Assembly: GCF_000018105.1 (NCBI RefSeq)
Contig: NC_009925.1
Coordinates: 4,800,001-4,832,000, forward strand
From: Acaryochloris marina MBIC11017
GTDB taxonomy: Bacteria > Cyanobacteriota > Cyanobacteriia > Thermosynechococcales > Thermosynechococcaceae
DNA: 32,000 bases
Direction: 5' to 3'
Numbering within the stretch: the stretch's first letter is position 1; every line of letters begins with the position of its first letter. Positions 4,068 to 32,000 of this stretch are shown here, piece by piece. The notes under the pieces are model-generated. The model had not been told where the DNA came from. It made no database searches and saw only the letters and a program-made list of their open reading frames with translations. The translations under genes and the position numbers were made by a program.

Positions 4068-5591
4068 TTAATCCGGCTGTTGAAGTTGCCGCTGAATGCG
4101 CAAGCTTAGTGTACTATGCTTGGACGCTAATCGTGCTTTCCCTGATGCTGCCCAATCTTGGAGAAATTCTACCTGTTCTTGGGCCGTACGGGCTAAAGGA
4201 ATGATTTGGCTGGCGGCTTCTAAGATATCATCCGTCGTAAAGTCTCGGTTCTGGCTAAATCCCAAATGCATCGCTTCAATAATGCTTTGTTCCAGCTCGG
4301 CTCCCGAGAAATCAGGGGTTTCGTAAGCTAATCGCTGTAAATCATATTGATTGAGGTTATGGGGACGTAGCCGAGATAAATGCACCGAAAAAATCGCTTC
4401 CCGTTCTTCCTTGGTCGGTAATCCCACAAAAAAGATCTCATCAAATCGCCCTTTTCGTAGCATCTCTGGGGGTAAAGACTGGATATTATTAGCCGTTGCT
4501 ACGACAAAGACCGGAGAGGTTTTCTCCGCTAGCCAAGTAATAAAGGTGCCAAACACCCGGCTGGTTGTCCCCGAATCCCCCCGACCATCAATGCCTGCAA
4601 AGGCTTTATCAATTTCATCAATCCAGAGAATGCAAGGGGCAAGGGCCTCCGAAAGCTGAATCATTTGTCGGGTTCGAGACTCTGACTCTCCAACTAATCC
4701 GGCAAATAGACGCCCTACATCCAGACGCAATAGCGGCAGGTGCCAATGGTGGGCAATCGCCTTCGCCGTTAAGGATTTGCCTGTCCCTTGGATGCCGACT
4801 AACAATAGACCACGAGGATGGGGTAAACCATACTGTCGCGCTTTTTCAGAGAAGGCACCTCCTCGGCGCAGCAGCCAATCCTTAAGATTATCGAGGCCAC
4901 CAATATCGGAAATATTTTCCCGAGCGGGATAAAAATCCAGAATCTGGGTTTGGCGAATGGTTTGTCGTTTCTCTTCCAGGATAAGTTCCACATCATCAGC
5001 GCTGAGTTGCCCATGGGTTGCGATTGCGCGGGACAATACCCGCCGAATCCGATCCATCGTTAACCCTTGGCAGGAACGGGCCAAATCATCCAAATCCTTA
5101 CCCGTCAAAGGTTGAGTGGTGGCAGCCAATAGACGTTCCACTTCAGAACGAATGTCTCCTAAATCAGGTAGAGGAAAATCAATCACATGGACCACTTCCC
5201 CCAAATCACTGGGAATGGCTACCTCACTGGCGAGCAAGACGATATTCTTGGGCTGAGACTTTAGCAGTCGAGATAGATTACGAAGCTTCCGAGAAATGGC
5301 CACATCCTCTAAAAATCGATTGAAATCTCGCAGGATAAAAATCGCAGGGGCAGACGTGGGTAGCTGCTCAATAAGTTCTAGGGCCTGCAAAGGGTTGCGT
5401 TGACCAAACCCTGCATCCGTGGGGTTCCCTTGATAGCCATCCACAAAGTCCCAAGTATAGACCGCTCGATTCCCCTGACGTTGAGCCGAATCCGCAATCA
5501 CCGATTCCACTCGTTCTTCCTCTTGCGTCGGAATATAAATTAATGGATATCGGGCTCTTAGGAGTAACTCAAACTCATGACTGAAACTCAT
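4068..5591 (-). CDS. ycf46: Ycf46-like AAA+ ATPase
   Basis: Walker A GIQGTGKS, Walker B ILWIDEIDK and second region of homology ATANN...RKGRFDE. The N-terminus MSFSHEFELLLRARYPLIYIPTQEEERVE resembles cyanobacterial or plastid Ycf46. The start was chosen at this Met; the ORF itself is open up to 5684. Confidence 0.8.
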   Translation of the reverse strand: MSFSHEFELLLRARYPLIYIPTQEEERVESVIADSAQRQGNRAVYTWDFVDGYQGNPTDAGFGQRNPLQALELIEQLPTSAPAIFILRDFNRFLEDVAISRKLRNLSRLLKSQPKNIVLLASEVAIPSDLGEVVHVIDFPLPDLGDIRSEVERLLAATTQPLTGKDLDDLARSCQGLTMDRIRRVLSRAIATHGQLSADDVELILEEKRQTIRQTQILDFYPARENISDIGGLDNLKDWLLRRGGAFSEKARQYGLPHPRGLLLVGIQGTGKSLTAKAIAHHWHLPLLRLDVGRLFAGLVGESESRTRQMIQLSEALAPCILWIDEIDKAFAGIDGRGDSGTTSRVFGTFITWLAEKTSPVFVVATANNIQSLPPEMLRKGRFDEIFFVGLPTKEEREAIFSVHLSRLRPHNLNQYDLQRLAYETPDFSGAELEQSIIEAMHLGFSQNRDFTTDDILEAASQIIPLARTAQEQVEFLQDWAASGKARLASKHSTLSLRIQRQLQQPD

Positions 5592-14710: not shown

Positions 14711-14781
14711 GCGGGTGTAGTTTAGTGGTAAAACCTTAGCCTTCCAAGCTAATGATGGGGGTTCGATTCCCCCCACCCGCT
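14711..14781 (+). tRNA. tRNA-Gly (anticodon UCC)
   Basis: Manual cloverleaf. Acceptor GCGGGTG/CACCCGC, D-arm GTTT-AGTGGTA-AAAC, anticodon arm TTAGC-CTTCCAA-GCTAA (anticodon TCC), variable loop TGAT, T-arm GGGGG-TTCGATT-CCCCC, discriminator T. CCA is not encoded. Confidence 0.9.
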
Positions 14782-15957: not shown

Positions 15958-16833
15958 TCAGGAACTAGGGGCCTCATACTGAAGATGAGCATAAGCAATT
16001 TCTACAGATTGTTCAAAGGGACCAGCATTTTTATAGAATTTCAAGATGTTCACCTTCATCTCTCGCCTCTCAGCACAGTCTGCGATGCATTGAATTAAAC
16101 GGGTATAGCTCCAACGTGGATATCTCAGGCGAATGGCTTTTGCATACCGTTTCTGGAGCTGTTTATTGTTGGGGAACTTGAGCTGAGCCAGAGACTGAAC
16201 TCTGGCTTCAATGTGATCTTGAATGCCATGGGGAGATGGAAGGACGATGTCTCCAACTTGATGAGTTTGAGCCCATTGAATCAAATGATACGCAATAAGC
16301 TGGTCGCATTTTTTTCCAAGATTTTCTAGTCTCTTTGAACGGCGTAGCCTTCCTTTGGAGAATTCTTTCTTTTTAATCTTGCGCCAATAAACTCTTTGGC
16401 GATGTACACGGCCTATCAAATAGGCGAATTGACTTCTCTTAAAAGGTTTTAGCTTATCTTGATAGCCCTCCAATTTGAGTAGTTGAGGAGCCGTGATGGT
16501 TGCAACCAGCTTGCGGGTCTGATTATTTACGATTGAAGCTTGAAGTGGGAGCCCACAATAAAGGCTAACACCCATAGTTAATTCAGGGTTTCCAATGCAA
16601 GGAGAAACATGGGGCCTTCTGAGAGAAGCGTTCTGAAGACGATTAATGGATGATTGAGTCCGCTTTAGGTATGTTTTTTGCGTTTCCTTGAGTGTATTGA
16701 GCGATTTTCCCTCAAAAGATCGCAACTTCCCATTCTCCTCTTCGATTTTTTCAGCGCGGACCTCTGCAGTTCCTTCGTCAGAGAGCAGTCGTTCATCAAT
16801 GGTGCCGTGAAAATACAGTCGATGAGTTACCCA
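15958..16833 (-). pseudogene. cas12k: cas12k remnant (C-terminal ~290 codons only, no in-frame start)
   Basis: The translation VTHRLYFHGTIDERLLSDEGTAEVRAEK...GDIVLPSPHGIQDHIEARVQSLAQLKFP...RYAKAIRLRYPRWSYTRLIQCIADCAE aligns by eye with the C-terminal RuvC-like region of ShCas12k. The matching ShCas12k segments are HHLTLYCCVDNRLWTEEG..., GSIVLPKLGDMRE...QKYAKQYRVNVHRWSYGRLIQSIQ. The reading frame is open upstream of the tracked TTG at 16725 but has no ATG, GTG or TTG start. It abuts hsdR-derived sequence. Confidence 0.75.
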
Positions 16834-17368
16834 GGGTTTCTTTGGGGTCGCGGTCCTGGCAGTATTGCTTTTTAGCGTGGTAGACGGTCTGGCCAGACCA
16901 GGGGTTCTTTAGCTCCATGGTGGCCAGGGCGATACCGTTGACGAACAGCACCATATCGAGGGACAGGCCCGGATCGCTTTCGGAGTAGTGGACTTGGCGA
17001 GTGACAGAAAAGATATTGCGCTCGAAATTTTCGCGGATGGCAGGGTTGGCGTCGTTGTAGGGGAGACTGTAGAGCAGGGTAAAGTCGGCATCGTTGATGG
17101 AAATGCCTTTTTTGAGCACGGCCAGGACACCGTCTTTTTTTGCCTTGCGGTGAAAGCGTTCGAGGATGAGGCGTTGCCAGTTGGGCTGGTCCTGGACTTT
17201 GGCGAGTTCGTTGGGCTGGGTAGTCTCTAGAAAGCGCCAGAATTTTTCTGTATCGATGGCAAATTCGCGGTCAAAGTCAGCCGGTGATCCTTTTTCGTAG
17301 CCTGCCCCCTGTACTAGTGCGTTTTCGATGCAGTTTTCTAGGGCTTTCTCATTGGTTTGGCTGACCAT
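16796..17368 (-). pseudogene. hsdR: type I restriction enzyme R subunit, N-terminal fragment (~175 of ~1000 codons)
   Basis: N-terminal HsdR nuclease-domain pattern (MVSQTNEKALENCIENAL..., LDMVLFVNGIALATMELKNPWSGQTVYHAKKQYCQDRDPKETL). Unrelated residues and a stop then follow. The helicase domains are absent. Confidence 0.8.
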
Positions 17369-17378
17369 GAATTGTTTC

Positions 17379-17714
17379 TCACTCTTCTAGGGCTTCGGTT
17401 ACGGCAGTTTGAATCTCGTTGATTCTGACATCAGCTTGGTCTGATTTAGCGTAGACCAGCAATAGGAGCACGTCTTCAGGTGATATCACTTGGTAAATGA
17501 TTCGATATCCGCCACTTTTGCCGGTGGGAATATCGCTGTTCTTGGCACGAACTTTGAAGACAGTAGCTGTGGTTCCGGGAATTTGGTCACCGATGAAGTT
17601 ACCTTGCTCTAACTGTTGAATAACGGGCTGGAGGTCGGATTGAATTTGGCGGTAGCGCTTTTTGAGGCTTTTGAGACGACGCTTAAATCTAGGGGTAAAG
17701 CGAACGGAGATCAT
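17379..17714 (-). CDS. RelE/ParE-superfamily (HigB/Gp49-like) type II toxin
   Basis: 111 aa. Motifs FKVRAKNSDIPTGKSGGYRIIYQV and LLLVYAKSDQ are typical of this toxin family. It has a 4-bp ATGA overlap with the upstream small gene. Confidence 0.7.
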   Translation of the reverse strand: MISVRFTPRFKRRLKSLKKRYRQIQSDLQPVIQQLEQGNFIGDQIPGTTATVFKVRAKNSDIPTGKSGGYRIIYQVISPEDVLLLLVYAKSDQADVRINEIQTAVTEALEE

Positions 17715-17971
17715 GGTTCGTCTGCTAGATCATCCCAGAGCTGAGAAGCTGGGAAGGTTTGCCTAGCCGCGGCTTCTTGAAGAGAGATTTTAAGATCGGC
17801 TAGGAGCTGGGCGTTGGATTCGTGCTCATCGACCCAGGCTAAACCGCTAGCAGGATCTTTCAGGGTGCTGATCACTTGCTGCCACAGGGCGAGGGGAACT
17901 AGAACATCGGTGGGTTCTCCAGCAGCATTGGTCACGTATCGGACTTGGCCCTCAAGGGATGAATTCACCAC
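17711..17971 (-). CDS. putative cognate antitoxin
   Basis: 86-aa acidic protein immediately upstream of the toxin and translationally coupled to it. The call rests on position and size only. Confidence 0.5.
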   Translation of the reverse strand: MVNSSLEGQVRYVTNAAGEPTDVLVPLALWQQVISTLKDPASGLAWVDEHESNAQLLADLKISLQEAAARQTFPASQLWDDLADEP

Positions 17972-18075
17972 GGTTAGGGATCTCCTGCTTGTGTCTCTCT
18001 ATTTTAGTCGGGGCTATCCCTACGTTTTTATATTTTCTGTTCTTACACTGAGTTAGCTATCGGTTGGGCCTTGAG

Positions 18076-18627
18076 CTATGGGTGCATGAGGTAAGATATC
18101 TGAATTGTTATATCTTGAAAGGCCATGGGTGATACGGTGCCAGTTTTCAGGATGTTTTCGGTATCATAGTGCCCATTCTGCAGACTTTTGAAGATATGGA
18201 GCTGTTTATCCTTTAAATTGACGACCCAATATTCCTGTATTCCGGATGCAGCATAGGTATTTTTCTTAGTGGTCAGGTCTTGGGTGAGGGTGGCGTCGGA
18301 AAATTCGATGAGCCAGTGGATGTCGCTGGGGTAGGGATGATGGTCTAGATAGACGGTGCCCAGGGGTTTAACGATGGCTAGGTCGGGGATGGGTTCTGAG
18401 TCGTCGCTGAGGATGATGGGGTGGGCTTCGCGGACTTTGGCTCGGCTGCCCAGCAGGTTACGCAGGTAGTCACCGACTTCGCTGTTGTAGTAGGCGTGGG
18501 GTTCACCCTCTGGGGGCATGATGATGATTTCTCCGCGTAGTAGTTCGACGGGCTGGTCGTCGAATACGCCAGCTTGGATGGCCTGGTGGTAGCGGTCTAT
18601 GGTCCATTTGTAGGTGGTGACGGTCAT
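18076..18627 (-). CDS. Uma2 family (DUF820) PD-(D/E)xK endonuclease
   Basis: 183 aa. Motifs ELLRGEIIIMPP, PDLAIV, LIEFSDATLTQDLTTKKNTYAASGIQEYWVVNL match the Uma2 pattern. Confidence 0.8.
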   Translation of the reverse strand: MTVTTYKWTIDRYHQAIQAGVFDDQPVELLRGEIIIMPPEGEPHAYYNSEVGDYLRNLLGSRAKVREAHPIILSDDSEPIPDLAIVKPLGTVYLDHHPYPSDIHWLIEFSDATLTQDLTTKKNTYAASGIQEYWVVNLKDKQLHIFKSLQNGHYDTENILKTGTVSPMAFQDITIQISYLMHP

Positions 18628-18693
18628 AGGGACCTAGCCTCAGACTGGGGAAAGGGCTGATGTATCAGTAGTTTTAGTATGGCAAATTTAAGT

Positions 18694-19976
18694 TCAGACT
18701 TTTATCTTGCCGGTTACAGCATGTGATATCAAAATTTCTCTAAATTCTTGAAGCTTATTGATTTGTTCTTCTGCTCTTACTTGAGCAGTTTCAAAACCAA
18801 GTAACCGATTATCTAGGAAATCTACAATTTGATTCTGCTCTTCTACAGGGGGACAAGCAGTATATAGAGCTCCAATGCGATCGACGTTTAAGTTTTCCTG
18901 AGTACTAACAATTGAGACTTCGTCTAGCCGAGTTTTCAGCACTCCAAACATGTAATAGAGAAAGTCTGCAGAAACTTCACCTGGATTTGGGAAAAAACCA
19001 ACGGCACTATCAGGAAAGCAAGCATTAAAACCTAAAATTGAAACCTCTCCAGTCTTTGCTCCGGTAATAACCATTACAACTGTGCCAGCAGGAAATTCTT
19101 TGCTAACTGCATATCCTCTGGCATTGAGAGTCTGTGAATATTTTGTGATTCTTCTCCCAGCTTGGGATATGTCACCAGTTTGAATGAATGGGTATTGTCC
19201 ACCATAGAACCTTGCATCGTTACGAGGTCTATGAGAAAACTTCCCTCTCAAGATTTGCGTAAGTCTTTTGACACTACACAATTTCCAATGATTAGGAACT
19301 TTTTCTAGTCCATGTATGCCGCGATCGCACATCGGCACATTGGGGTCTAGCCCTTTGGTGACGGCTTGATTGATGAGGATGGCTTTTTGTTCTTGTAGGA
19401 GTTCGATGAGGCGCTGTTTGGTTGCTATGGCATCATCAAGCTCAACAGTTTTCCGATCAAGAAACTCAACAATCCGGCGTTGCTCATCAATCGGAGGAAT
19501 CGTTAAAGGTAAATATTTAAAGTCTGTGTAGTCTAAGTTTTGGCGTAACCCAGACCCCATACCGTAATAGACCTTCAGCAAATCATATGCATGTAAGTAA
19601 ATCTTGGATCTATCTGCTTCGAAGGGGAAAGACATAAATAAGCAGATGTGATAATTCCATGGTCTTGAACTAATCCAATTCGAAGACTCGTTCGATCATT
19701 CTGTAAATCTGTTGCCCGAACAATAATGTCCCCTGGCTCAACAATCTGATAAGTCTCAAAGGATTCAGGTACTAAGCCATGTAGTTTTTCTTTGGGCTTA
19801 ATTACAATTTTTCCATAACTCAGGGATAAAACGGTTTTAACGTGATTACCGATATTTTTTACATTTTTGGGCCTCAGATAATTTCTTCCAAGCTCTACTC
19901 GCCAATGGTTTGGAACCTCATTAAGCCAGGAAACTTGACTATCTTGATAAGTTTCATGTTTTGGGAAAGTCAACAT
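18694..19976 (-). pseudogene. hsdS: type I R-M specificity subunit, disrupted by a frameshift near 19600-19630
   Basis: Two overlapping ORFs (19575..19976 and 18694..19635) together give an HsdS layout: TRD1, the central conserved helix PPIDEQRRIVEFLD, TRD2, and the C-terminal helix PPVEEQNQIVDFLD. The reading frame switches within TRD1. Confidence 0.7.
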
Positions 19977-20071
19977 CCTTTATACCTCCCCAAAACTCAC
20001 CAACCGCTTCAACAAGCCTTCCATCTTCTGCTCCAGCACCAAAATTTCCTCAACCACCGTTTCCCAAATCC

Positions 20072-20410
20072 TCAGCCCACCGCATAGCCAGACGCTTTCC
20101 GCATAAACGGTGAGTGCAGCCCCAACACAATATTCTGTTTAGGAATGCCCTGCTCCACCAGCCGTTCAGCCAAATTAATCTCCGTATTATTGCGCTGAAT
20201 CCAGACCTTATTGTCCTTAATATCAATGTGGACAATGGTGCCGTACACAAACTGCTTTTGCTCCCAGCCCACATCGATCAAAAGATAGTGATTATGCTCC
20301 GCATCAAACACTAGCTGAGACTCCACATCGCTATGGCTAGAGTGATCATAGCCGTGTAACTCCCTGAGCAAATCCTCAACTAAGCATCGATAGTCCTTTA
20401 ACTCAGCCAT
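20072..20410 (-). CDS. xisI: XisI family protein
   Basis: 112 aa. The pattern DAEHNHYLLIDVGWEQKQFVYGTIVHIDIKDNKVWIQRNNTE is typical of XisI. It overlaps the xisH stop by 13 bp. Confidence 0.8.
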   Translation of the reverse strand: MAELKDYRCLVEDLLRELHGYDHSSHSDVESQLVFDAEHNHYLLIDVGWEQKQFVYGTIVHIDIKDNKVWIQRNNTEINLAERLVEQGIPKQNIVLGLHSPFMRKASGYAVG

Positions 20411-20811
20411 TCTAAAATCACCTCCGTTTCAGGCTCATAAACAATCAGCCTAATTTGATATTTTTGAACCACCGACTTTGCCAACAAAGACTGAAAAAAC
20501 GTACTGTAAATCTCTTCAGGAACAGCTAGATATAGCAGACGATTAGGCTCTTTATTTTCCAATGCTACCTGGTAGTTAATAAATTGACCGATAGCCAAAT
20601 GAAAATCGAAAACCACCGAATCACTGGCAAAGGTTTTCACCTCGACGGCAATTTTTTCCTCACCTCGCTCTGCGGCCAAAATACGCTCCGCACCCAAATC
20701 AATATAGATCCGAGTATCGCCAAACTTTAGGCTTAGCGGATCGTCCGTCACCGTCCAGCCTGCACTTTCCAGACCACGCTTCACCGCATCATGAAAGATA
20801 TCTTTAGCCAT
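20398..20811 (-). CDS. xisH: XisH family protein
   Basis: The N-terminus MAKDIFHDAVKRGLESAGWTVTDDPL and the segment IAVEVKTF are typical of XisH. The start was chosen at the ATG at 20811, which overlaps the hsdM stop; the ORF is open to 20826. Confidence 0.8.
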   Translation of the reverse strand: MAKDIFHDAVKRGLESAGWTVTDDPLSLKFGDTRIYIDLGAERILAAERGEEKIAVEVKTFASDSVVFDFHLAIGQFINYQVALENKEPNRLLYLAVPEEIYSTFFQSLLAKSVVQKYQIRLIVYEPETEVILEWLS

Positions 20812-23227
20812 CGGTAGTCGCCCCAAAACTGACTAACCGCTTCAATAAGCCTTCCGTCTTCTTCTCCAGCTCTAAAATTTCCTCAACGACCGTCTCCAGC
20901 TTCCTCAACGGTTTGTGCTGATAAAAATACTTATTGAAATTAATCTCATAGCCAATCTTCGTACTATCCAACGCGATCCAAGCATCCTCAACATGGGGCC
21001 GCACCTCCGCCAAAAAATACCCATGGATCTGCGCCGTACCCCGCTCCAGTGCCTGCCCATAGTTCAACGGCACACTTTCCGTATCCCGCAGCTCACTATC
21101 CGTCTCATACTCAATCCACTGCCCCGCCGTTTCCCCAGGCCAGTACCCAAAGTCCGCCAGGTGCTCCTCCGTGGTGCCCAAATGCTCCAATAACTCCGCT
21201 AGCTTCTCACCCTTCAGCTTATGCACCTTTTTAATCACCCTGGCCGCCGCCTCATCCCGCCAACTCACCGCATTAAAAATTTGCCTCTTCTCACTAGCCG
21301 ACAGCTTGCTGTCCAACTGTCTGGCCAAAGTTTTGAGCGTATCATTCACCCGCTCAGCAAAATCATTAAAATCATGCCAAACCTCCTGCTCCACCGAGGC
21401 CATGAGCTGCTCCGCTACCTGCATCAAATCCCGCTGATTTTCCCAGGTCTTCGCTGTAAACAACGCCTTGCGATTCTTCGCCGTCAGGCTAATTTCTTCC
21501 TTTTCCAGGTATTCCTCAATTTTTTGCTTATGGTCCGTTAGGCTCGTGTAAATCTCATCACCCCACTCACCATAGGCCCACTCCATTACCTCCGCCAGGA
21601 CAGGCACATAGCGCAGCGTCGCCACCCGCTCCGGCGTAAACTGAGCTAACAGCCGCAGGGGCCGTTCCACAGTTACCTTGTAAAAGCCAAAATCCTGATT
21701 ATCAAACACCTTAGAGATGGGCGGCGGTGGCAGCTCCCTATCTTCACTAGGCGGCAACGTCGGCTGATGCACCCGATCTAAATACAGGTGAGTAATCTTC
21801 TCAATCTGCTCCGGTGCAAACTCACAGTTCTTCGCCCCCAGATTCTTCCGCAGCTTGCGATACAGCTCCGACCTATCAATCAGCTGCACCTTTCCCTGCC
21901 GTTCCGGTGCCTTATTATTCGACAGCACCCACACATAGGTGGAAATGCCGGTGTTGTAAAACATATTCTGAGGCAACTGGACGATCGCCTCCAGCCAGTC
22001 ATTTTCAATGATGTAGCGGCGAATATTGCTCTCCCCGCTACCCGCATCCCCTGTAAACAGCGAAGACCCATTGTGAACTGACGCAATTCTGGAACCTGCC
22101 GGACTCTGGTCCAGAGGCTTCATTTTGCTAACCATATCCATTAGAAACAGCAACTGCCCATCCGAAGAGCGGGGCGTTGCCTTCTCTAAACTTTCCTCAT
22201 CCCAAAAATCCTTCAGTGGTAACAAAAACCGCTCATCCAGGACATCCTTGCCATCTAGGATATGTTTTTGATCCGCTGCGTAGGACTTGCCATAGGGTGG
22301 ATTTTCCAGCATGAAATCAAACCGCATTCCGGCAAACTCATCCATCGCCAGCGTCGATCCCAGTTTGATGTTCTCAGGACTATTCCCCTTAATCATCATG
22401 TCCGACTTGCAAATGCCATAGGTCTCCGGGTTGACCTCCTTGCCATAGAGGTAGACCTGAGCATCTGATTTGATTCCCCCCTCCGGGTCGCTGATAAAGT
22501 TTTGGGACTCTGTCAACATCCCCCCTGAACCGCAGGCCCCGTCATAGATCAACATCACGGGCGGAAGCTGCTCCTTCACTGGCATAAACAGCAAGTGTGT
22601 CATCAGCTTGATCACCTCGCGGGGGGTGAAGTGCTCTCCAGCCTCCTCGTTATTTTCTTCGTTAAACTTACGGATCAGCTCCTCAAACACATAGCCCATC
22701 CCCAGATTGCTCAAACCCGCCAGCTTGCGTCCATCCGGATCTTCACCTTGAGTTGGGCTGAAATTGATATAGGGACTCGTAAACTTTTCCAAGACATCTA
22801 ACAGTACATCCGCCTGCACCATCCGTTTGATTTGGTCCCGCAGATAAAAACTGTCAATGATCTCTTTGACGTTCTCGCTAAATCCATCCAGATAGGCTTT
22901 AAAGTTGGCCTCTAAAATTTGGCGGTTATTGGACGCCGTTTCAACTAATCTTTTCAGCGTCCAATCTGAAGTGTTGTAGAACACATAGCCCGAGGCATCC
23001 TTTAACGCACCAGACTCTAGCTCGGTCAGCCCCACGGATTCCCGCTGAAACCGAACCTCTTCCATGACTGCATCCTTGGTCTCCTCCAGCAGACAATCTA
23101 ACCGCCGCAGCACAAACATCGGCAAGATGACATCGCGGTATTTTCCGCGAACGTAGACATCACGCAAGCAGTCATCTGCAATCGACCAAATGAATGAAAT
23201 CAGCTTGTTTTGTGATGCTGCATCCAT
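20804..23227 (-). CDS. hsdM: type I restriction-modification system methyltransferase subunit (long form, 807 aa)
   Basis: HsdM N-terminal domain (LISFIWSIADDCLRDVY), AdoMet motif YDGACGSGGML and catalytic NPPYG motif. The frame is intact throughout. Confidence 0.9.
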   Translation of the reverse strand: MDAASQNKLISFIWSIADDCLRDVYVRGKYRDVILPMFVLRRLDCLLEETKDAVMEEVRFQRESVGLTELESGALKDASGYVFYNTSDWTLKRLVETASNNRQILEANFKAYLDGFSENVKEIIDSFYLRDQIKRMVQADVLLDVLEKFTSPYINFSPTQGEDPDGRKLAGLSNLGMGYVFEELIRKFNEENNEEAGEHFTPREVIKLMTHLLFMPVKEQLPPVMLIYDGACGSGGMLTESQNFISDPEGGIKSDAQVYLYGKEVNPETYGICKSDMMIKGNSPENIKLGSTLAMDEFAGMRFDFMLENPPYGKSYAADQKHILDGKDVLDERFLLPLKDFWDEESLEKATPRSSDGQLLFLMDMVSKMKPLDQSPAGSRIASVHNGSSLFTGDAGSGESNIRRYIIENDWLEAIVQLPQNMFYNTGISTYVWVLSNNKAPERQGKVQLIDRSELYRKLRKNLGAKNCEFAPEQIEKITHLYLDRVHQPTLPPSEDRELPPPPISKVFDNQDFGFYKVTVERPLRLLAQFTPERVATLRYVPVLAEVMEWAYGEWGDEIYTSLTDHKQKIEEYLEKEEISLTAKNRKALFTAKTWENQRDLMQVAEQLMASVEQEVWHDFNDFAERVNDTLKTLARQLDSKLSASEKRQIFNAVSWRDEAAARVIKKVHKLKGEKLAELLEHLGTTEEHLADFGYWPGETAGQWIEYETDSELRDTESVPLNYGQALERGTAQIHGYFLAEVRPHVEDAWIALDSTKIGYEINFNKYFYQHKPLRKLETVVEEILELEKKTEGLLKRLVSFGATTDG

Positions 23228-24619: not shown

Positions 24620-24864
24620 AAGTCCCCCTGTTTTACTTCGTTGGGTCAGCGGTAGTGTTTTACATGGCCTAACTATGGTTAGACGACTGACTGACATATA
24701 CTCCTCTACACAGAATATTAGATGTCAAGTGTCGTGTAATGCTCTGATTTGGATAGATAAAGTGACACATTGGTAGTTATCACTTATCTATTCACTCACT
24801 AGAAATATCTATCTCAAGAACAACAGTGCCATCAATAAAATTTGTAGATTTGGCGCTGCAGATA

Positions 24865-25037
24865 AGAAATGACGCCTAATTCTGGAAAGCCCTAAAAGAA
24901 ATGACATGTAATTTTGGAAAGATAATCAGTTGAGAAAAAAGTTGAATTTCTCCGAAGTCTTCATCTGGTATATTCTTCAAGGATTTAGAGCTGCGACATT
25001 AATTCCGAAAAAGTGTCATTTAATTTTGGAGTGTATA
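24865..25037 (-). repeat. cluster of a second family of transposon-end-like repeats ending in TATACA
   Basis: Direct repeats AGAAATGACGCCTAATTCTGGAAAG (24865-24889), AGAAATGACATGTAATTTTGGAAAG (24897-24921), GCGACATTAATTCCGAAAAAG (24993-25013) and GTGTCATTTAATTTTGGAG (about 25013-25031), then TGTATA (25032-25037). An inverted copy AATTTTCCAGAATTAATGTCAC lies at 23909-23930, directly after a TGTACA. Confidence 0.4.
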
Positions 25038-25261
25038 ACTGTCATCATCCTAGGGCTTATATCGAACTGGCTGGCCTACTGCGCCCTTAGAAACGGAGGT
25101 ATGACGAGGGACGAAAGCCTTAGGGTTCTTGGTATGATGCGCGAAGAGACTGCCTCTGCTTTGACAGGGAAAGATCTAGAAACTACAAAAGAACTTATGT
25201 TTAGCTAGGCACCGAGTGTCCTATTCCTATAGGGGCCTGGGGTGTCCCCTTCACGACGTCA

Positions 25262-25813
25262 ATGAAAATTAGCCAGAAATATTACTTGATTGTCGATCTT
25301 GAAGCCACCTGTGCAGATGATAATTCCATTCCTCGCCGCAGAATGGAGATGATTGAGATTGGAGCTGTGCTTCTCAACTCACAAACTCTGCAGATAGAAA
25401 GTGAATACCAGACCTTCATAAAGCCCATTCTTCATCCTGTGCTGACTGAGTTTTGCAAATCTCTGACATCCATCTCTCAGCAGGATATTGAAAAGGCCCC
25501 ACTTTTCCCGGCGGCTCTAAAAGATTTTCAATCTTGGTTTTACCCCTGTGGGAGTTATCTGTTTTGCTCTTGGGGAGATTATGATCGGCATCAATTTGTG
25601 CAGGATTGCCAGATGCATGGCGTTGGCTATCCCTTTCCGGGGGATCATCTCAATTTAAAGCGAGCATTCTCTAGCGAGATCAACTCAAAAAAGAAGTTTG
25701 GTATGGCAGGCGCATTGACCGAATTAGGTCTAGAGCTTGAAGGGGTTCATCATCGGGGTATAGATGACGCTCGAAATATTGCCCGCATTGTTCAAACTGC
25801 TTTTTCTGAGTGA
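25262..25813 (+). CDS. DEDDh 3'-5' exonuclease (ERI-1/KapD-like)
   Basis: 183 aa. Exo motifs VDLEAT, WGDYD and HHRGIDDARN. Confidence 0.8.
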   Translation: MKISQKYYLIVDLEATCADDNSIPRRRMEMIEIGAVLLNSQTLQIESEYQTFIKPILHPVLTEFCKSLTSISQQDIEKAPLFPAALKDFQSWFYPCGSYLFCSWGDYDRHQFVQDCQMHGVGYPFPGDHLNLKRAFSSEINSKKKFGMAGALTELGLELEGVHHRGIDDARNIARIVQTAFSE

Positions 25814-25895
25814 GTCTCTAGAAAGTTCACAACAGGTGTTTCGCAATGAGTCCCCCTATTCAGAACAATATTGACCGAGCCGTGAGTCTAAGAAC

Positions 25896-26405
25896 ATGCT
25901 GTTTACCATTGTCGAGAGTTTCTCTCCTAGAGACGGCGATCGCTGGATCACTTACTGCCGATGGCGGGGATTAGCCTTTACCTGTTTTGATTCGATAGAT
26001 GGCATTCTCAGACCCAGCCTTTTTGATGCAACAGAGAAGGACGATTGGAACCATGTTGTTAATCAGGATTGCAAGACTCACCTAATAACGGATTACGACT
26101 ACGCTGTTCACAAGCAGAGTGAGATAGGGCAGGGAGATCTGGTGGGTTTGAGATTTAGCGAGCATGATCAAAGCGATCCACGATTTTTAAGATTTGATTT
26201 AATCGATGGCTATTGCGACATCTCCTTGCTCACCAATTGGGGAAATGATGTGGATAGTATCAACCGTTCCTTGTCCCCTAATGCGCTAGTACTGAGTTAT
26301 CAGACCGTTAAGGCTATCCAAAAGGAATTGTTGCAGACGAATGGTACGGATCCGCATGTTGAAGGATGTCAGATCGTGTCAATTTACCGACTCAACGAGA
26401 CTTAA
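25896..26405 (+). CDS. hypothetical protein
   Basis: 169-aa ORF, co-directional with the exonuclease and the RT. No recognisable motifs. Confidence 0.45.
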   Translation: MLFTIVESFSPRDGDRWITYCRWRGLAFTCFDSIDGILRPSLFDATEKDDWNHVVNQDCKTHLITDYDYAVHKQSEIGQGDLVGLRFSEHDQSDPRFLRFDLIDGYCDISLLTNWGNDVDSINRSLSPNALVLSYQTVKAIQKELLQTNGTDPHVEGCQIVSIYRLNET

Positions 26406-26600
26406 CGAGTCGATGGAATATCCCTTTTGGGTGGGTTTGGACCTCCAGTGGAAACGGACGATGTTGGCCGTTGTATCTATGACGGTCCCGAGCCACTTCC
26501 AATGTTCATAGAAAGCTTTAAGACTGCAAACCCAACTTTGATATTGGGCATTCTACGAAGAGAGTGTTATGATACACTAACAGTACAAAAGTACTATATA

Positions 26601-26830
26601 GCTCGGTCAGTTTAGGTTTACCCCTTGCAACCCGAATGGTGCATCGCCATTCATGTGATTAGTCTAAACGCGCATCACTGGCTTGCTCTTTACTGTGCGG
26701 GGCTTCGCCCTACCATCGCTGTTACGGTTTAGTTTCCATGAAACTAACGAGCGATGGTAGGGCGGCCCCGCTCGAGTTGAGCAATCCAGTCCGAAGAGGT
26801 TTACGAAGAGGCGCTGAACTGACCGGGTTT
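26601..26830 (+). ncRNA. retron-like msr/msd non-coding RNA
   Basis: Flanking inverted repeats CGGTCAGTT (26604-26612, followed by TAGG) and AACTGACCG (26817-26825) resemble a1/a2. Small hairpins GAATGG-n7-CCATTC and GTGAT-n14-ATCAC are present. A long imperfect hairpin at 26697-26771 has 7+15+8 bp: GCGGGGC..CGCCCTACCATCGCT..TTAGTTTC-CATG-GAAACTAA..AGCGATGGTAGGGCG.GCCCCGC. It ends 60 nt upstream of the RT start. Confidence 0.55.
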
Positions 26831-26884
26831 ATTTTTTTCTAAATAGACCGCTATTTATATCATCGAGTTCACCTTTCTGACTCC

Positions 26885-28315
26885 ATGTCCAATCAACCCC
26901 GTACTCGCCAAGAACTCTACGATCGCGTCCGCCAAAGCTCCCGTGATGAGGTCATCCTAGAAGAAATGGTGCGGTTAGGATTTTGGCCCGCCGAAGGCGA
27001 GATGCCCCAAGATCCAACGGATGAGATTCGACGTAAAGGAGAAATTCAGCGAGAACTGGCAGCACTGCGGGCCGAGAACCGCAAACTGCACAACGAAGCC
27101 GCCATTAAAAAGCAGCTCTACAAAGAGCGACTCGCTGCGTCTAAAAAGAAACGCCAAGAAACCAAAGAACGGAGAGAGCAAGAACGACAGTCCCGAGCCG
27201 CTGCATGGCGGGATCGAAAAGCTCGGGATATTGTCTATCTGGGAACAGGAGTTTCCGGGGGCCTTAATCAGACCGAGTGCGATCGGACCCGACTTCAGCA
27301 ATATGGACTTCCTGCTTACGGAACAGCAGAAGAGATTGCCAAGGCCATGCAGATTAGCGTTGGCCAGTTGCGCTTCTTAGCCTTTTCTCGGCGTACCGCC
27401 CAAATTTCCCACTATGTCCGCTTCAAAATCCCCAAGAAAACTGGGGGAGAACGGCTGATTTCAGCCCCCATGCCCCGCCTGAAGCAGGCCCAATACTGGA
27501 TTGCAGAAAAGCTTCTAGCAGCCATCCCCCTCCACGAAGCTGCTCATGGGTTTTGTTCAGGACGCTCCATCGTTACCAATGCAACGCCACACTTGGGGGC
27601 TGATGTGGTGATTAACCTCGATCTCCAAGATTTTTTCCCGTCTATTTCCTATCCCCGGATTAAAGGCTTATTTCGTTCCTTTGGCTATAGCGAAGCTGCT
27701 GCCACGATTTTTGCCCTGCTCTGTACAGAACCAGATGTGGTGGAGGTGGGCTTGGATGGTCAGCATTACTATGTGGCCCAGTCTCAGCGACATTTACCCC
27801 AAGGGGCACCCACCAGCCCCATATTGACCAATCTGCTCTGTCGGCGTCTAGATCGTCGGTTGACGGCCATGGCGGCAGAGTTGGGATATCGGTATACGCG
27901 CTACGCCGATGATCTAACCTTCTCAGCCACAGGTCAGCCTCAGCAGCAGGTGGGCAAGCTGTTGCGAAGGACCCATGCCATTGTCACCCACGAAGGATTT
28001 ACGATTCATCCCCAAAAGACACGGGTGCTTCGCAGTGGTCGACAACAAGAGGTGACAGGGGTGGTGGTCAACGAAAAGCTGAACGTTGACCGTAAAACCC
28101 TCAAGCGATTTCGGGCGTTGCTCCACCAAATTGAACAGTCAGGCTACGACGATCAACATTGGGGTGGCCAACCAGTATCGTTTGCTCAGATCCAAGGCTA
28201 TGCCAACTTTGTGGAGATGGTGAATCCTGAACGCGGAGCCCAGTTCCAGGCTCAAGTTAAGCGAATTAAGCGCAAGTACCCACCCCGCGTTCAAGCCTTT
28301 AAACCAGCTTCTTGA
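26885..28315 (+). CDS. retron-type reverse transcriptase with ~130-aa N-terminal coiled-coil/basic extension
   Basis: 476 aa. Retron-type RT motifs are present: YVRFKIPKKTGGERLISAP, NLDLQDFFPSI, LPQGAPTSPILTNL, catalytic YADDLTFS and the retron-typical VTGVVVN. Residues 1-130 are rich in K, R and E. Confidence 0.85.
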   Translation: MSNQPRTRQELYDRVRQSSRDEVILEEMVRLGFWPAEGEMPQDPTDEIRRKGEIQRELAALRAENRKLHNEAAIKKQLYKERLAASKKKRQETKERREQERQSRAAAWRDRKARDIVYLGTGVSGGLNQTECDRTRLQQYGLPAYGTAEEIAKAMQISVGQLRFLAFSRRTAQISHYVRFKIPKKTGGERLISAPMPRLKQAQYWIAEKLLAAIPLHEAAHGFCSGRSIVTNATPHLGADVVINLDLQDFFPSISYPRIKGLFRSFGYSEAAATIFALLCTEPDVVEVGLDGQHYYVAQSQRHLPQGAPTSPILTNLLCRRLDRRLTAMAAELGYRYTRYADDLTFSATGQPQQQVGKLLRRTHAIVTHEGFTIHPQKTRVLRSGRQQEVTGVVVNEKLNVDRKTLKRFRALLHQIEQSGYDDQHWGGQPVSFAQIQGYANFVEMVNPERGAQFQAQVKRIKRKYPPRVQAFKPAS

Positions 28316-29720
28316 TTTCACCATAGGCACGATAGAAGCCACCGCGGGCAGATTCCCGCAGGTCTTCGACCACGTAGCGCGCTCCTGCTTCCCGCATCTC
28401 TTTGGGGAATTGGACATTCCAGTCGGTGTGATAACCCGCAGATTCCACCCGGACTCGCAATTTACTGCCGTCTTTTACACAGACTAAGATGATGCCCTGG
28501 CCAGCCTGGGTGGTGGTTTCTAACGTAGACGAAGCTGCGATCGCATCTAGTTTCGGCGCTTTCACATTCACCACATCCGGCACCGTACCAGCTTGAGCGG
28601 CTTGAATGGCGGCTTCACTAGCATCAATACAGGCCAACGAGCCATCCGTCGTCACAATATATAGACGATCTTGAATAAACTGCATGGAGAAGGCCGACCC
28701 ACATCCGGTTCCCAGCTTCCAGAGACGTTTGCCGTCTGCATCAAAACAATAAATAGAAGAGGAACTGTCTCCCGCAAAGACATATTTGCCGTCTGCCGCC
28801 GCTGCACAGGAATAAACCTGGTTATCGCATTTGAGAACTTGTTCTTGCTGCCCCTGTTTTGTAAAGCAATAGACCTGGCCCTGACTGGTACCGGCATACA
28901 CGGTTGACTCTTCCTGCCAGCCAAACAGGACCGCCCCCTGAGTTCGCTGATTCCAAATCACCTGACCGTCTTCCCAGTCATACATCGTCACTCCACCGAC
29001 ATGGCCATGGTAAACGCCGATCTCATCGCACCGGACCATCCAGCCGTGATCGCCACTACTGCGTTGATGCCACTGGGATTCTTCTTCATGGTTAATGGTG
29101 GTGACGACACCCTGGCGATCCGAGACCCCCAAAATCCCGTCGTTGATATCCAGCCAAAAGATATCGACATCCTCGGCAATAGAATAGGCCACTCGGGGGA
29201 TTTTACCGCTTAGGTCGTAGACTTTGCCATCGTCACAACCGGCATAGAGCCAATCATCATCAGCCACAATGCATTTAACGCCATCGGGAAGTTTAAACTC
29301 TTGAATGACGTTGCCATCGGGGGTGAGGGTAAAAATTTGTCCCTTTTGATTGCCTACCCAGCATCGCGATTCATCAATAAAGATGCCAAAGGCGGAGGCA
29401 CCAGAGGCAAACTTCCAGAGGACGGGCGCACGCTTGGCCGAGGAGCGGGTGCTGGTGATTTCCCGCCGAGTAATGGCCCGCTTCTTCCGTACCCCCTGGA
29501 CTGCATGTTCATAGCCTTTGCGCAGCTTGGCTTTGATTTTCTTCTCGGCTTCTGCTTTGGCTTTTTCGGGGGTCGCCAAGGTTTTCTCTTGGGTTTGGCC
29601 CGCATTGCCAATCCGTCCATACCGGATTTTTAATTCGGTGCCATTCACCACCACTTCGTAAAACTTGTGGGCAACCCCTTCGTCTTCTGACAGCTCTAAA
29701 TACGTTCTTTCTTCAGCCAT
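28299..29720 (-). CDS. WGR domain protein fused to a PQQ/BamB-like beta-propeller and an uncharacterised C-terminal domain
   Basis: 473 aa. N-terminal WGR pattern (HKFYEVVVNGTELKIRYGRIGNAGQTQEKTL...KLRKGY), a basic linker, then repeated beta-strand blades (DDDWLYAGCDDGKVYDL, VYAGTSQGQVYCF, YVFAGDSSSSIYCFD, LYIVTTDGSLACID). Its 3' end overlaps the RT 3' end by 17 bp. Confidence 0.7.
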   Translation of the reverse strand: MAEERTYLELSEDEGVAHKFYEVVVNGTELKIRYGRIGNAGQTQEKTLATPEKAKAEAEKKIKAKLRKGYEHAVQGVRKKRAITRREITSTRSSAKRAPVLWKFASGASAFGIFIDESRCWVGNQKGQIFTLTPDGNVIQEFKLPDGVKCIVADDDWLYAGCDDGKVYDLSGKIPRVAYSIAEDVDIFWLDINDGILGVSDRQGVVTTINHEEESQWHQRSSGDHGWMVRCDEIGVYHGHVGGVTMYDWEDGQVIWNQRTQGAVLFGWQEESTVYAGTSQGQVYCFTKQGQQEQVLKCDNQVYSCAAAADGKYVFAGDSSSSIYCFDADGKRLWKLGTGCGSAFSMQFIQDRLYIVTTDGSLACIDASEAAIQAAQAGTVPDVVNVKAPKLDAIAASSTLETTTQAGQGIILVCVKDGSKLRVRVESAGYHTDWNVQFPKEMREAGARYVVEDLRESARGGFYRAYGEIKKLV

Positions 29721-29829
29721 GCTGATCCTCTCTAATCCTCTGTCCTATAGGATTCACCTATCAGATCCAGTTTGACGCAAGGGGGGATCAATTCTCGTAG
29801 ATAAGCGTAAGGATGGCGATTGCACAGGC

Positions 29830-32000
29830 CTAGGCCATCACTTTGACGTGAGCATTCTCTAGATATCGATCCAGCGCGGCTTGTAGTTCCTCTGTGCGGA
29901 TCGGCTTACTGACATAGTCTTGCATCCCAACTGCTAGGCATCGCTCTCGATCCCCCTGCATGGCATTGGCAGTCAGGGCAATAATATGGGGGCGATCCTC
30001 GGCGTCCCATTCCTTTTGAATGGTGGCTGCTGCCGTCAGGCCATCCATCTCCGGCATATGTACGTCCATCAAAACAATGTCATAGGTTTGGCGCTTTAAG
30101 GCTGCTAAGACTTCATGGCCATCATTGGCGACATCAGCGCTATACCCCAGTTGTTTCAGGATCAGTAAGGCGACTTTCTGGTTTACGGCCACATCTTCTG
30201 CCAGCAAAATACGTAGGGATGCCGGGCTGACTCGCTCAGGCTCCGGCGGCTGTTCTTCTGGTTCGGCAGGCTCTCCAAAAATATTAGCCAGAACATCATG
30301 GAGCCGTGACTGTTGAATCGGTTTGTTTAGGATAGCTGCGAAGTTGATATTCCCCTGCTGTTGAATCAACTCATCTTTGCCCAAAGAACTCAACATCACT
30401 AAGGGAAAGTCTGCCAACTGTTCCCGAATCCGCTTGGCCAAGGTTAACCCATCCATTTCTGGCATTTGCATATCCAGAACGGCCAGATCAAACCCATGAT
30501 CGGCGGTGAGTAATGCTAGGGCTGCGGCTCCTCCCGGAACGGCCTCGCTGGTCATGCCCCAAGCTTTTGCTTGCAGGGTTAGAATTTTACGGTTAGTGGG
30601 ATTGTCGTCCACGATCAGCAGATGCTTGCCATCCAAATGGGCGGGAGAAATGATGGGTCGCTGAGCGGGATCAGCAATGGGGACGGAAATCGTGAAGCAG
30701 AAAGAAGACCCTTTGCCCACGTCACTTTCGACCCACATGCGGCCACCCATTAGCTCGCACAGCCGATGACAAATGGCTAACCCTAATCCGGTGCCGCCAT
30801 ATTTGCGGGTGGTGGAGGCGTCCACTTGGCTAAAGGATTTGAACAATCGATCCATTCGATCAGCAGGAATGCCGATTCCCGTGTCTTTGACTACAATCTG
30901 GAGGATATGGTGACCCTTTCGGACTGGAGCGGCATGATCTGCTGTGACATCTTGAATATAGACCACCACTTCTCCCGTGTCTGTAAATTTGACACCGTTG
31001 GTGAGGAGGTTGACGATAATTTGTCGTAGCCGGGTCACATCCCCGATAATCCATTCGGGAGTATCAGGTTCAAATAGGTACGCCAATTCTAAGGATTTAT
31101 CTACTGCTCTGGGGGCGACGATACGGAGGGCCTGTTCGATACAAATTCGGAGGTCAAAGGGTTGGTTCTCAAATTCCAGTTTGCCTGCTTCTATTTTGGA
31201 GAAATCTAAAATATCGTTAATCAGGCTGAGTAATGCATCCCCACTGCTGCGAATGGTTTCTACAAAGTCAGCCTGTTGCAGATCTAAATCTGTATTCAGA
31301 AGTAGACCGGTCATGCCAATGACGGCATTCATGGGGGTCCGCAACTCATGGCTCATATTGGCTAGAAACTGAGATTTAGCGGTGTTGGCCGTATCAGCGT
31401 CCCGCTTGGCCTGCACGAGGGCCGTATTGTTGCTTTCTAAGGCCTGGCGCTGCTGTTGCTCTTGCTCTAAGAGTTGGGCTTGGGCAATGGCAATGCCCAC
31501 CTGACCCGCCACGGCTTCTAATAGTTCGATGTCTGCTTCGGACCAAGTGCGGTTGCGATCGCACTGATGTAGCACAATCACCCCATTGGCCTGACCCTGA
31601 TAGGAGGTGCGAGTCGCCAGTAGGGACTGGAGCTGTGCCTGCTCACAAAATTGGATTTCTCCCTCGGTCATCTGGTCCCGATCTAGTTCAGGTATGGCCC
31701 ATACGCGATCATGACCAAAGATTTCTGACAGCAGGGGATGATTGCCCATCTCCAGTTCCAGGCAAGAGGCGTAATCCATCTCCAAATACTCCGCCAGATC
31801 AGAGTCTGCTGAAATCTGGGCGGCATAGCTCTGAATAAAGCAGCGATTGGTTTCGAGGGTATAGCCCAACTGGTCAACGGTGGTTTGAAAAATATGCTGG
31901 GTATCAAGGCTGCGGCGAATGTCTTGGGTAATCTGCTCGATGAGTAAGACCCGCTGAATTTGCAGGTTTAAATTCTGGTTGGCGGCTTCTAAGGCGGCAG
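29830..32000 (-). CDS. hybrid sensor histidine kinase (GAF-HisKA-HATPase_c-REC-REC), 5' end outside window
   Basis: H-box SHELRTPMN, plus N, G1 and G2 boxes (DTGIGI, GGTGLGL). Two receiver domains (DDNPTNR...DMQMPEMDG; EDVAVNQ...DVHMPEMDG). The frame remains open from 31869 to nt 32000, where GAF-like sequence starts. Confidence 0.85.

Follow-up and report, generated by a model that had tools for sequence, protein, structure and literature searches.

What kind of retron is encoded in the genome of Acaryochloris marina MBIC11017, and what may it still do without the genes that normally accompany it? The question is raised by a stretch of 32,000 nucleotides (NC_009925.1, positions 4,800,001 to 4,832,000, hereafter the window, with positions counted from its first letter). 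A non-coding RNA (ncRNA) at about 26600-26828 (+) lies there 56 nt 5′ of an intact gene for a reverse transcriptase (RT) of 476 amino acids (aa) at 26885-28315 (+). An initial annotation of this DNA proposed a retron msr-msd ncRNA with a retron RT, and held that the retron type could not be assigned. The proposal has stood up well, and the type can be assigned after all. We conclude with considerable confidence that the locus is a type XIII (Mx162-family) msr-msd/RT cassette whose two canonical accessory genes were lost by deletion; that the cassette belongs to type XIII is near certain. In the classification of Mestre et al. 2020, type XIII is RT clade 10, which contains Mx162, Mx65, Sa163 and Ne144 (PMC7736814). 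Two sorts of gene are linked to it, coding for DEDE/winged-helix/SWIM proteins (cluster 114) and for WGR-like/HEAT-ARM proteins (cluster 216 and relatives) (PMC7736814). These are called SWIM_XIII and WGR_XIII below.

The RT matches the PADLOC profile RT_XIII with an E-value of 8e-200 (662.8 bits, residues 2-468), and the next family scores 351 bits. The motifs that had been read from the sequence earlier are all found in this frame, LPQGAPTSP at residues 304-312, YADD at 340-343 (27902-27913) and VTG at 390-392 (28052-28060), and NATPH is found at 232-236. In an alignment of 20 RT sequences NATPH (NAxxH, region X), YADD and VTG (region Y) are invariant, and all 171 family-invariant residues are kept in the window. 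About 7,000 homologues of this RT are available. The cyanobacterial ones are 65-71% identical over 98% of the length, the N-terminus included, and the RTs of type XIII loci from Archangium and Hyalangium are 59% identical.

Could this instead be a group II intron, DRT/UG or Abi RT that happens to follow a structured leader? Such enzymes share a generic RVT_1 domain (Pfam) with the protein, and nothing else speaks for them. The 25 best PADLOC families listed are all retron RTs, with no DRT family among them. The NCBIfam models for the group II RT (TIGR04416, 64.7 bits with a cutoff of 300), Drt2 (41.8 with 390) and Drt3a (31.7 with 200) stay far below their cutoffs. A scan of the whole window at the Rfam gathering thresholds returned a tRNA (14711-14781) and no group II intron, retron msr or other family. 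Retron RTs come first by sequence and by fold, and the NAxxH and VTG motifs are in place. We consider an origin outside the retrons almost certainly wrong.

The N-terminus of the RT had been described as an unusual extension of about 130 residues, rich in K, R and E, and predicted to form a coiled coil. The extension is present (residues 1-133), with these residues making up 35% of it and 18% of the rest of the RT, and rising to 48% in residues 44-114. It is not unusual, however, since an extension of this kind is the norm in the family. Identity within the family is 64-71% from end to end, and residues 1-133 are conserved like the catalytic core, with invariant residues within LxxMxRxGFWP in the 20-sequence alignment. 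An extended N-terminus has been described for the RTs of Mx162, Mx65, Sa163 and Ne144, alongside which the cyanobacterial RTs group (PMC6868368). The AlphaFold2 model (mean predicted local distance difference test score, pLDDT, of 74) has two short helices followed by a helix of 71 residues (44-114), with a pLDDT of 56-88 for the block, and a long charged helix is a fair description of the predicted N-terminus. Solved retron RTs align from residue 134 onward only. The best PDB match by sequence is Ec86 (E = 4.6e-45, residues 134-465), and the best matches by fold are also retron RTs. Because no type XIII structure has been solved, residues 1-133 are without structural precedent.

The second line of evidence for the type is the ncRNA. 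The region 26595-26835 folds with -112 kcal/mol, compared with -72 +/- 5 for dinucleotide shuffles (z = -7.9; none of 200 shuffles equals it). It is bounded by a perfect inverted repeat of 9 bp at 26604-26612 (CGGTCAGTT) and 26817-26825 (AACTGACCG), with TAGG next to the first copy at 26613-26616, all of which can be read directly in the DNA as the initial annotation had it. With G-U pairs allowed, the repeat grows into a terminal duplex of about 26600-26616 with 26812-26828 (arms a1 and a2; -27.9 kcal/mol, z = -4.7 against shuffled 3′ arms).

We compared this ncRNA with a sample of 80 loci anchored on the RT, from cyanobacteria, Acidobacteriota, Myxococcota, Alpha-, Beta- and Gammaproteobacteria, Bacteroidota, Planctomycetota and others. 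An nhmmer search with 251 nt of the window found a homologue in 48 of the 80; each of these lies on the strand of the RT and precedes it. For an alignment of 46 sequences, on which the following counts rest, the RNAalifold structure has 48 pairs, and compensatory changes occur in 38. The consensus structure has 90% of its cells paired, compared with 37-47% in controls with slid partners, and the covariation score of 0.569 compares with at most 0.136; neither value is reached by any of 500 shuffles. Sequence is conserved in CCTTGCAA, the first hairpin, CATCACTGG...CTCTTnACTGTGC, GAGTTGAG...CCAGTCC and ACGAAGG, and that of the long stem varies freely. The a1/a2 duplex is formed in all 46 sequences by unalignable, unrelated sequence each time. 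Inverted repeats and hairpin are found upstream of orthologous RTs as well. The core from CTTGCA to CGAAG spans 181-190 nt in all sequences, with 185 nt in the window and 185-187 nt in myxobacteria. All family-invariant columns are kept in the window. Homologous ncRNAs lie beside RT_XIII genes that are also accompanied by SWIM_XIII and WGR_XIII. The ncRNA is, on the strength of this homology, a type XIII msr-msd, and both it and the RT are intact and orthologous to their counterparts in type XIII loci across many phyla.

The individual elements of the ncRNA (Table 1) differ in how well they are conserved. In the family, CCTT pairs with AAGG (26806-26809) to form helix 1; in the window C26623 stands opposite A26809, which leaves one mismatched pair. 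Two small msr hairpins had been described. The first is real and covarying, with 99.7% of cells paired and compensatory changes in four of its eight pairs, and it is likely the element that the RT recognizes. The second (GTGAT/ATCAC, 26655-26679) belongs only to the window's own minimum free energy fold. Among the homologues 50% of cells pair, no better than shuffles, and of two alternative pairings tried on the alignment neither outdid the shuffles; we have dropped it as a conserved element. The long hairpin at 26697-26771 is present as described, and in its conserved core (26699-26769) every one of the 27 pairs has compensatory (double) changes among the homologues. The ACGAAG(G) motif probably lies near the start of the template.

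These elements suggest the following course of events. The ncRNA would be transcribed, perhaps independently and up to the T-run that follows a2, and its ends would pair as a1/a2. The RT would then bind the first hairpin and the CCTTGCAA region, and synthesis would be primed from the 2′-OH of a guanosine at the inner end of a1. The leading candidates are G26615 and G26616, in the TAGG at the inner end of a1/a2, and G26610, in a semi-conserved GGTCAG, is the alternative. Around the end of a1, the alignment has no one column in which G is conserved. The priming motifs of Mx162, Sa163 and Mx65 are nAGC, published as CAGC and GAGC (PMC6868368). In length arithmetic with Mx162 (msd of 162 nt, overlap of 8 nt; PMC6868368) the candidates lie only 4-7 nt apart, the loci compared being myxobacterial ones and not Mx162 itself. 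From about 26810 the RT would copy the RNA leftward through the long hairpin and stop near the msr/msd boundary. The product would be a branched multicopy single-stranded DNA (msDNA) of roughly 140-165 nt, a length that we infer because the msDNAs of Mx162 and Sa163 measure 162-163 nt (PMC6868368) and the core of 185 nt is as in myxobacteria. On sequence grounds the cassette alone most likely still makes msDNA. In complete systems the RT-msDNA presumably acts with two WGR-domain proteins and with the SWIM/DEDE protein as output. The window would retain only one of these partners, a protein with a WGR domain and a beta-propeller whose gene converges on the RT.

The T-run may mark the end of an independent ncRNA transcript. 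In several cyanobacteria (L052, L009 and L002) as much as 2.3 kb of other genes stands between ncRNA and RT. Taken together, the T-run and this separation suggest that the ncRNA is transcribed on its own. A simple terminator scan did not call a2 with the T-run.

Two further observations concern the arrangement of ncRNAs in type XIII loci. Such insertions between ncRNA and RT are frequent in cyanobacterial type XIII loci (L009:8273-9963, L052:9289-9966 and L002:9051-9959); among the inserted genes are one for a NYN/LabA-like nuclease and unannotated open reading frames (ORFs) of 237 and 302 aa, and the ncRNA there adjoins SWIM_XIII, not the RT. Some type XIII loci also have tandem arrays of the ncRNA, mostly of 2-3 copies (L001, L021, L024, L025, L040 and L149). 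A metagenome contig (Ga0075163_10011429, L157:8594-9813) has five copies, in which the msr and the scaffold are nearly identical and the msd stems are entirely different yet self-complementary. Several different msDNAs might be made by one RT in such loci.

What sets the window apart is the absence of the partner genes. The reference order is WGR_XIII (about 1060 aa, WGR and HEAT), SWIM_XIII (about 547 aa), ncRNA and RT. SWIM_XIII is found in 67 and WGR_XIII in 50 of the 80 reference loci, with identities confirmed by PADLOC and Pfam. Neither was found in the window by tblastn (E-values of at least 0.07). We also searched a six-frame translation of the 32 kb with profile hidden Markov models (HMMs) built from 47 SWIM_XIII proteins and from full-length WGR_XIII proteins. 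The SWIM_XIII model found nothing (best E = 1.7). The WGR_XIII model found the WGR domain of the beta-propeller gene only (E = 0.01), and no HEAT/ARM protein. The initial annotation had reported no canonical effector, which is correct for SWIM_XIII and WGR_XIII. It had, however, considered only what follows the RT in the same orientation. The usual place of the type XIII partners is upstream, and it went unnoticed that the convergent WGR/beta-propeller gene shares this neighbourhood in other genomes. No gene follows the RT on the same strand, and the next gene is this convergent one, which overlaps the 3′ end of the RT by 17 nt.

The history of the locus can be read from its relatives. SWIM and HEAT are likewise missing from two close relatives with this arrangement (L081 and L082; 97-98% identity to the window), and another 11 kb or so beyond the WGR/beta-propeller gene, covered by L081, contain no SWIM_XIII or WGR_XIII. 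A sister clade has both genes. It comprises three Logan metagenome contigs (L166, L168 and L172) that were found through orf169, a gene between SWIM_XIII and the ncRNA. In L168 and L172 (87% DNA identity) the order is HEAT, SWIM, a small ORF, an RNase T-like gene, orf169, ncRNA and RT, with the WGR/beta-propeller gene convergent. L166 (84% DNA identity) agrees with them as far as orf169, at which point the contig stops. The SWIM stop codon of L166 is exactly where homology to the window sets in, which makes the window a deletion derivative. On these alignments the absence of SWIM_XIII and WGR_XIII is a secondary deletion, and no novel architecture needs to be proposed. A further contig (L171, 88-89% identity) has the deleted state and a left flank in common with the window, and therefore the loss is not very recent. 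Just left of the breakpoint is an AT-rich stretch (24740-25118) with three occurrences of one motif (AAATGACnnnTAATTnTGGAAAG and a variant), which may be left over from whatever brought the rearrangement about.

Table 1. Features of the retron locus in window coordinates.
Feature	Position	Strand	Comment
Deletion, right-hand breakpoint	25119-25262	.	Window-L166 homology starts at 25119 = L166 5215; L166 SWIM gene ends at 5219
DEDDh/RNase T-like exonuclease	25262-25813	+	By annotation; between SWIM_XIII and ncRNA in sister clade
orf169, conserved hypothetical protein	25896-26405	+	RT strand; between SWIM_XIII and ncRNA in sister clade
Sigma-70-like promoter candidate	26545-26573	+	TGGGCA-17-TATGAT, extended TG, about 27 nt upstream of a1; weak (1 site, 0.8 expected by chance)
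a1, 5′ arm of terminal duplex	26600-26616	+	Holds perfect 9-mer 26604-26612
msr motif CCTTGCAA	26623-26630	+	TTGC invariant in 46 of 46 sequences
Conserved msr hairpin	26634-26652	+	Helix 2; 8 bp, 3-nt loop
msd stem region	26677-26790	+	Helices 3-6; basal helix 26677-26687/26780-26790 enclosing long variable hairpin; putative msDNA template
ACGAAG(G) motif	26803-26809	+	Immediately 5′ of a2; CGA and G after AA invariant, second A in at least 90% of sequences
a2, 3′ arm of terminal duplex	26812-26828	+	Holds perfect 9-mer 26817-26825
T-run TTATTTTTTTC	26829-26839	+	Directly after a2; same in other cyanobacterial homologues (alignment columns 287-300)
Type XIII retron RT, 476 aa	26885-28315	+	N-terminal extension, residues 1-133 = 26885-27283
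WGR and beta-propeller protein, 473 aa	28299-29720	-	Convergent with RT, 17-nt overlap

An alternative to loss is relocation, that is, a complete but split system with SWIM_XIII and WGR_XIII elsewhere in the genome and acting in trans. Cyanobacterial type XIII loci are indeed often dispersed, as seen in the distances between ncRNA and RT given above. Around some RTs (L005 and L053) a distance of 6-10 kb contains neither SWIM nor HEAT nor ncRNA, and in 13 loci the WGR/beta-propeller gene is more than 10 kb from any retron gene. A split system would also be in keeping with the purifying selection under which the RT and the WGR/beta-propeller gene remain. Against this, the closest relatives with both genes keep them contiguous with the cassette, a break as clean as the one at the SWIM stop codon is more readily explained by loss than by relocation, and there is no copy in the combined context of about 43 kb. 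We think a split system somewhat unlikely, and prefer deletion.

If the partners were deleted, the remaining cassette could be a functionless remnant on its way to becoming a pseudogene. The deletion itself would fit such an end, as would the neighbouring island, which looks degraded (an N-terminal fragment of HsdR and a split HsdS), and the C26623/A26809 mismatch in an otherwise conserved pair. The state of the genes says otherwise. The RT frame is intact with 171 of 171 family-invariant residues, the ncRNA keeps every invariant column and is without a single difference from L081 and L082, and the codon differences from L081 are 31 synonymous and 6 non-synonymous in the RT (70 and 8 in the WGR/beta-propeller gene). 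A decaying remnant is in our opinion decidedly unlikely.

The differences from L081 are themselves unevenly distributed over 24644-32000. There is one in 24644-27006, 26 fall in 27007-27400 (the charged helix of the RT) and none in 27400-27800, and beyond 27800 the sequences diverge by 2-6% through the WGR/beta-propeller and kinase genes. This mosaic suggests recombination within the locus.

The gene that converges on the RT deserves a description of its own. Its protein matches the Pfam domains WGR (2.5e-17) and PQQ_2 (1.1e-14), and no recognizable catalytic domain was found in Pfam and PADLOC scans. The only PADLOC match is a weak one to HEAT-ARM_XIII (PDLC02919, 5.9e-6), and a myxobacterial orthologue has no PADLOC match. 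With WGR_XIII it has the WGR domain only in common (33% identity over 69 aa). The protein is not part of the PADLOC model set for type XIII, and a propeller protein is not mentioned by Mestre et al. 2020 (PMC7736814).

The distribution of this gene nevertheless ties it to the family. In each of the seven myxobacterial loci whose flank is long enough, an orthologue (62-67% identity) opens the operon, and the order is WGR/beta-propeller, WGR_XIII, SWIM_XIII, ncRNA and RT with gaps of 1-60 nt. Among 83 metagenome loci anchored on the WGR/beta-propeller protein, 25 contain type XIII genes: in 18 it is directly upstream of WGR_XIII, in five the RT is convergent downstream, and in two the RT precedes it on the same strand. 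In another 13, which extend 3 kb or more to either side, no retron gene is present. Finally, two RT sequences (P0111, 541 aa, and L012:222-1919) end in an in-frame fusion with the C-terminal domain of this protein, about 65 aa long. The fused domain is 60-63% identical to residues 402-472 of the window protein, and the two RTs are 69% identical to each other. Fusions of this kind are evidence of the Rosetta-stone type that the RT and the WGR/beta-propeller protein are functionally linked. Judged by gene order, the WGR/beta-propeller gene is a member of the type XIII neighbourhood. In two cyanobacterial type XIII loci (L083:14672-16513 and L084:13063-14901) the RT is followed at once, on its own strand, by a gene for a VWA-domain protein of about 612 aa, which stands before the convergent WGR/beta-propeller gene. 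WGR, SWIM and VWA genes are neighbours also in the yeh/molR region of E. coli.

This raises the possibility that the window holds a functional minimal variant, in which the RT-msDNA and the WGR/beta-propeller protein, as sensor or effector, are self-sufficient without SWIM and HEAT. The tight linkage and the two RT fusions just described would agree with it, as would the few non-synonymous changes in both genes and the fact that the state without SWIM and HEAT is common to contigs 88-98% identical from several sequencing runs. Set against these are the lack of a recognizable catalytic domain, the occurrence of the protein far from any retron gene, and the finding that all other loci from the WGR/beta-propeller query with that gene and an RT also have SWIM and HEAT where the flank allows. 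We find self-sufficiency distinctly improbable. A related and more specific proposal is that the WGR/beta-propeller protein would be an uncatalogued fourth type XIII component that docks the RT-msDNA through its C-terminal domain of about 65 aa, and that RT, msDNA and this protein would still function without SWIM and HEAT/ARM. We put this forward as an unlikely idea that is nonetheless worth stating, since, if true, the window would be a natural experiment that defines the minimal sensing core of the type XIII family.

As to the functional state of the locus, we favour the reading that deletion has left a disarmed cassette, which may persist because the loss of its effector is harmless. Some points weigh against the account given here. 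The literature searched reports no function for the type XIII family, nor a phenotype, in defence or otherwise, for any of its retrons. That the SWIM protein is the effector is itself a prediction by Mestre et al., who describe the SWIM/DEDE protein as nuclease- or transposase-like (PMC7736814). The msDNA of the window, its priming guanosine and the ends of the msd are predictions from sequence. The mosaic identity with L081 means that the signal of purifying selection may in part be older than the deletion. Finally, the context seen is 32 kb plus the 11 kb or so through L081, and SWIM_XIII and WGR_XIII could sit elsewhere in the genome.

The two genes upstream of the ncRNA, for the RNase T-like exonuclease and orf169, have the same order in L166, L168 and L172. 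orf169 has no match in Pfam, NCBIfam or PADLOC. Its 82 homologues are patchily distributed over cyanobacteria, Verrucomicrobiota and Desulfobulbales, mostly in unrelated gene contexts and in some cases away from any retron (L169, L170 and L173), and the nearest named relative is from an Acaryochloris metagenome-assembled genome. Two roles were considered for these genes and rejected. The first is that orf169 is what remains of SWIM_XIII. There are weak tblastn matches at 26136-26273 (E = 0.1-0.6), but the SWIM profile HMM finds nothing there, and orf169 is a separate conserved family. The second is that orf169 and the RNase T gene are replacement effectors. Neither is found among the 80 RT-anchored loci, and because the sister loci hold both alongside SWIM and HEAT, they do not replace them. 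The pair may be clade-specific add-ons to the retron.

The wider window runs from housekeeping genes (purK, gpsA and others) through the tRNA to an island, the retron and a hybrid histidine kinase. The island contains a type I restriction-modification methylase, a split specificity subunit, an N-terminal fragment of HsdR, Uma2 and XisH. The restriction-modification region (16796-23227) seems to be degraded or interrupted. The methylase is intact (20804-23227), the specificity subunit (HsdS) consists of two overlapping ORFs (19575-19976 and 18694-19635), HsdR is an N-terminal fragment of 190 aa only (16796-17368), and XisH (20398-20826) and Uma2 (18076-18627) are interspersed. A search of a plasmid collection gave weak matches to WGR-domain genes only, which give no hint of the type of replicon.

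Mx162 was the first retron ever found. The kind of element described here is thus long known, and its N-terminal extension and ncRNA are typical. What is new is a reduced architecture, which falls short of the definition of type XIII in its accessory genes, together with genomic evidence for an additional WGR/beta-propeller partner. A natural derivative without SWIM and HEAT and its full-length sister loci offer a ready comparison for the role of the accessory genes. The case for the WGR/beta-propeller protein draws on its place in the myxobacterial operon, its recurrence in cyanobacterial neighbourhoods and the RT fusion, and this protein is missing from current detection models. The deep alignment illustrates that the msd stem is hypervariable in sequence and strictly paired. 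There is also a lesson for annotation, as PADLOC-style rules will miss such cassettes or label them incomplete.

How does the window compare with known systems? The closest solved structures are those of Ec86 (Eco1; 7V9U, 7V9X). Its RT core is like that of the window (top Foldseek match, 32% identity) and the logic of msr and msd is common to both, whereas Ec86 has no N-terminal extension, an unrelated ncRNA and a different effector. In tripartite toxin-antitoxin retrons such as Sen2 the RT-msDNA restrains a toxic effector. By analogy, loss of the effector with RT and ncRNA kept would be a tolerated direction of decay, which would explain the state of the window. We know of no toxicity or antitoxin role that has been shown for any type XIII component.

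The closest known systems are the type XIII retrons themselves (Retron-Mxa1/Mx162, Mxa2/Mx65, Sau1/Sa163 and Nex2/Ne144; PADLOC retron XIII). The window is like them in the full-length RT profile including the N-terminal extension, and in an ncRNA that is homologous to those of myxobacterial, acidobacterial, proteobacterial and Bacteroidota loci and lies immediately upstream of the RT. It differs in lacking SWIM_XIII (DEDE/winged-helix/SWIM) and WGR_XIII (WGR and HEAT/ARM) within 32 kb, in its cyanobacterial host, in the T-run after a2, and in the WGR/beta-propeller gene placed tail to tail with the RT. Nearest of all are the sister loci. L168 and L172 are like the window from the RNase T gene through orf169 and the ncRNA to the RT, and have the same convergent WGR/beta-propeller gene with an overlap of 17 nt. 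Unlike the window, the sisters (L166, L168 and L172) keep WGR_XIII (1078-1083 aa) and SWIM_XIII (547 aa) upstream of RNase T.

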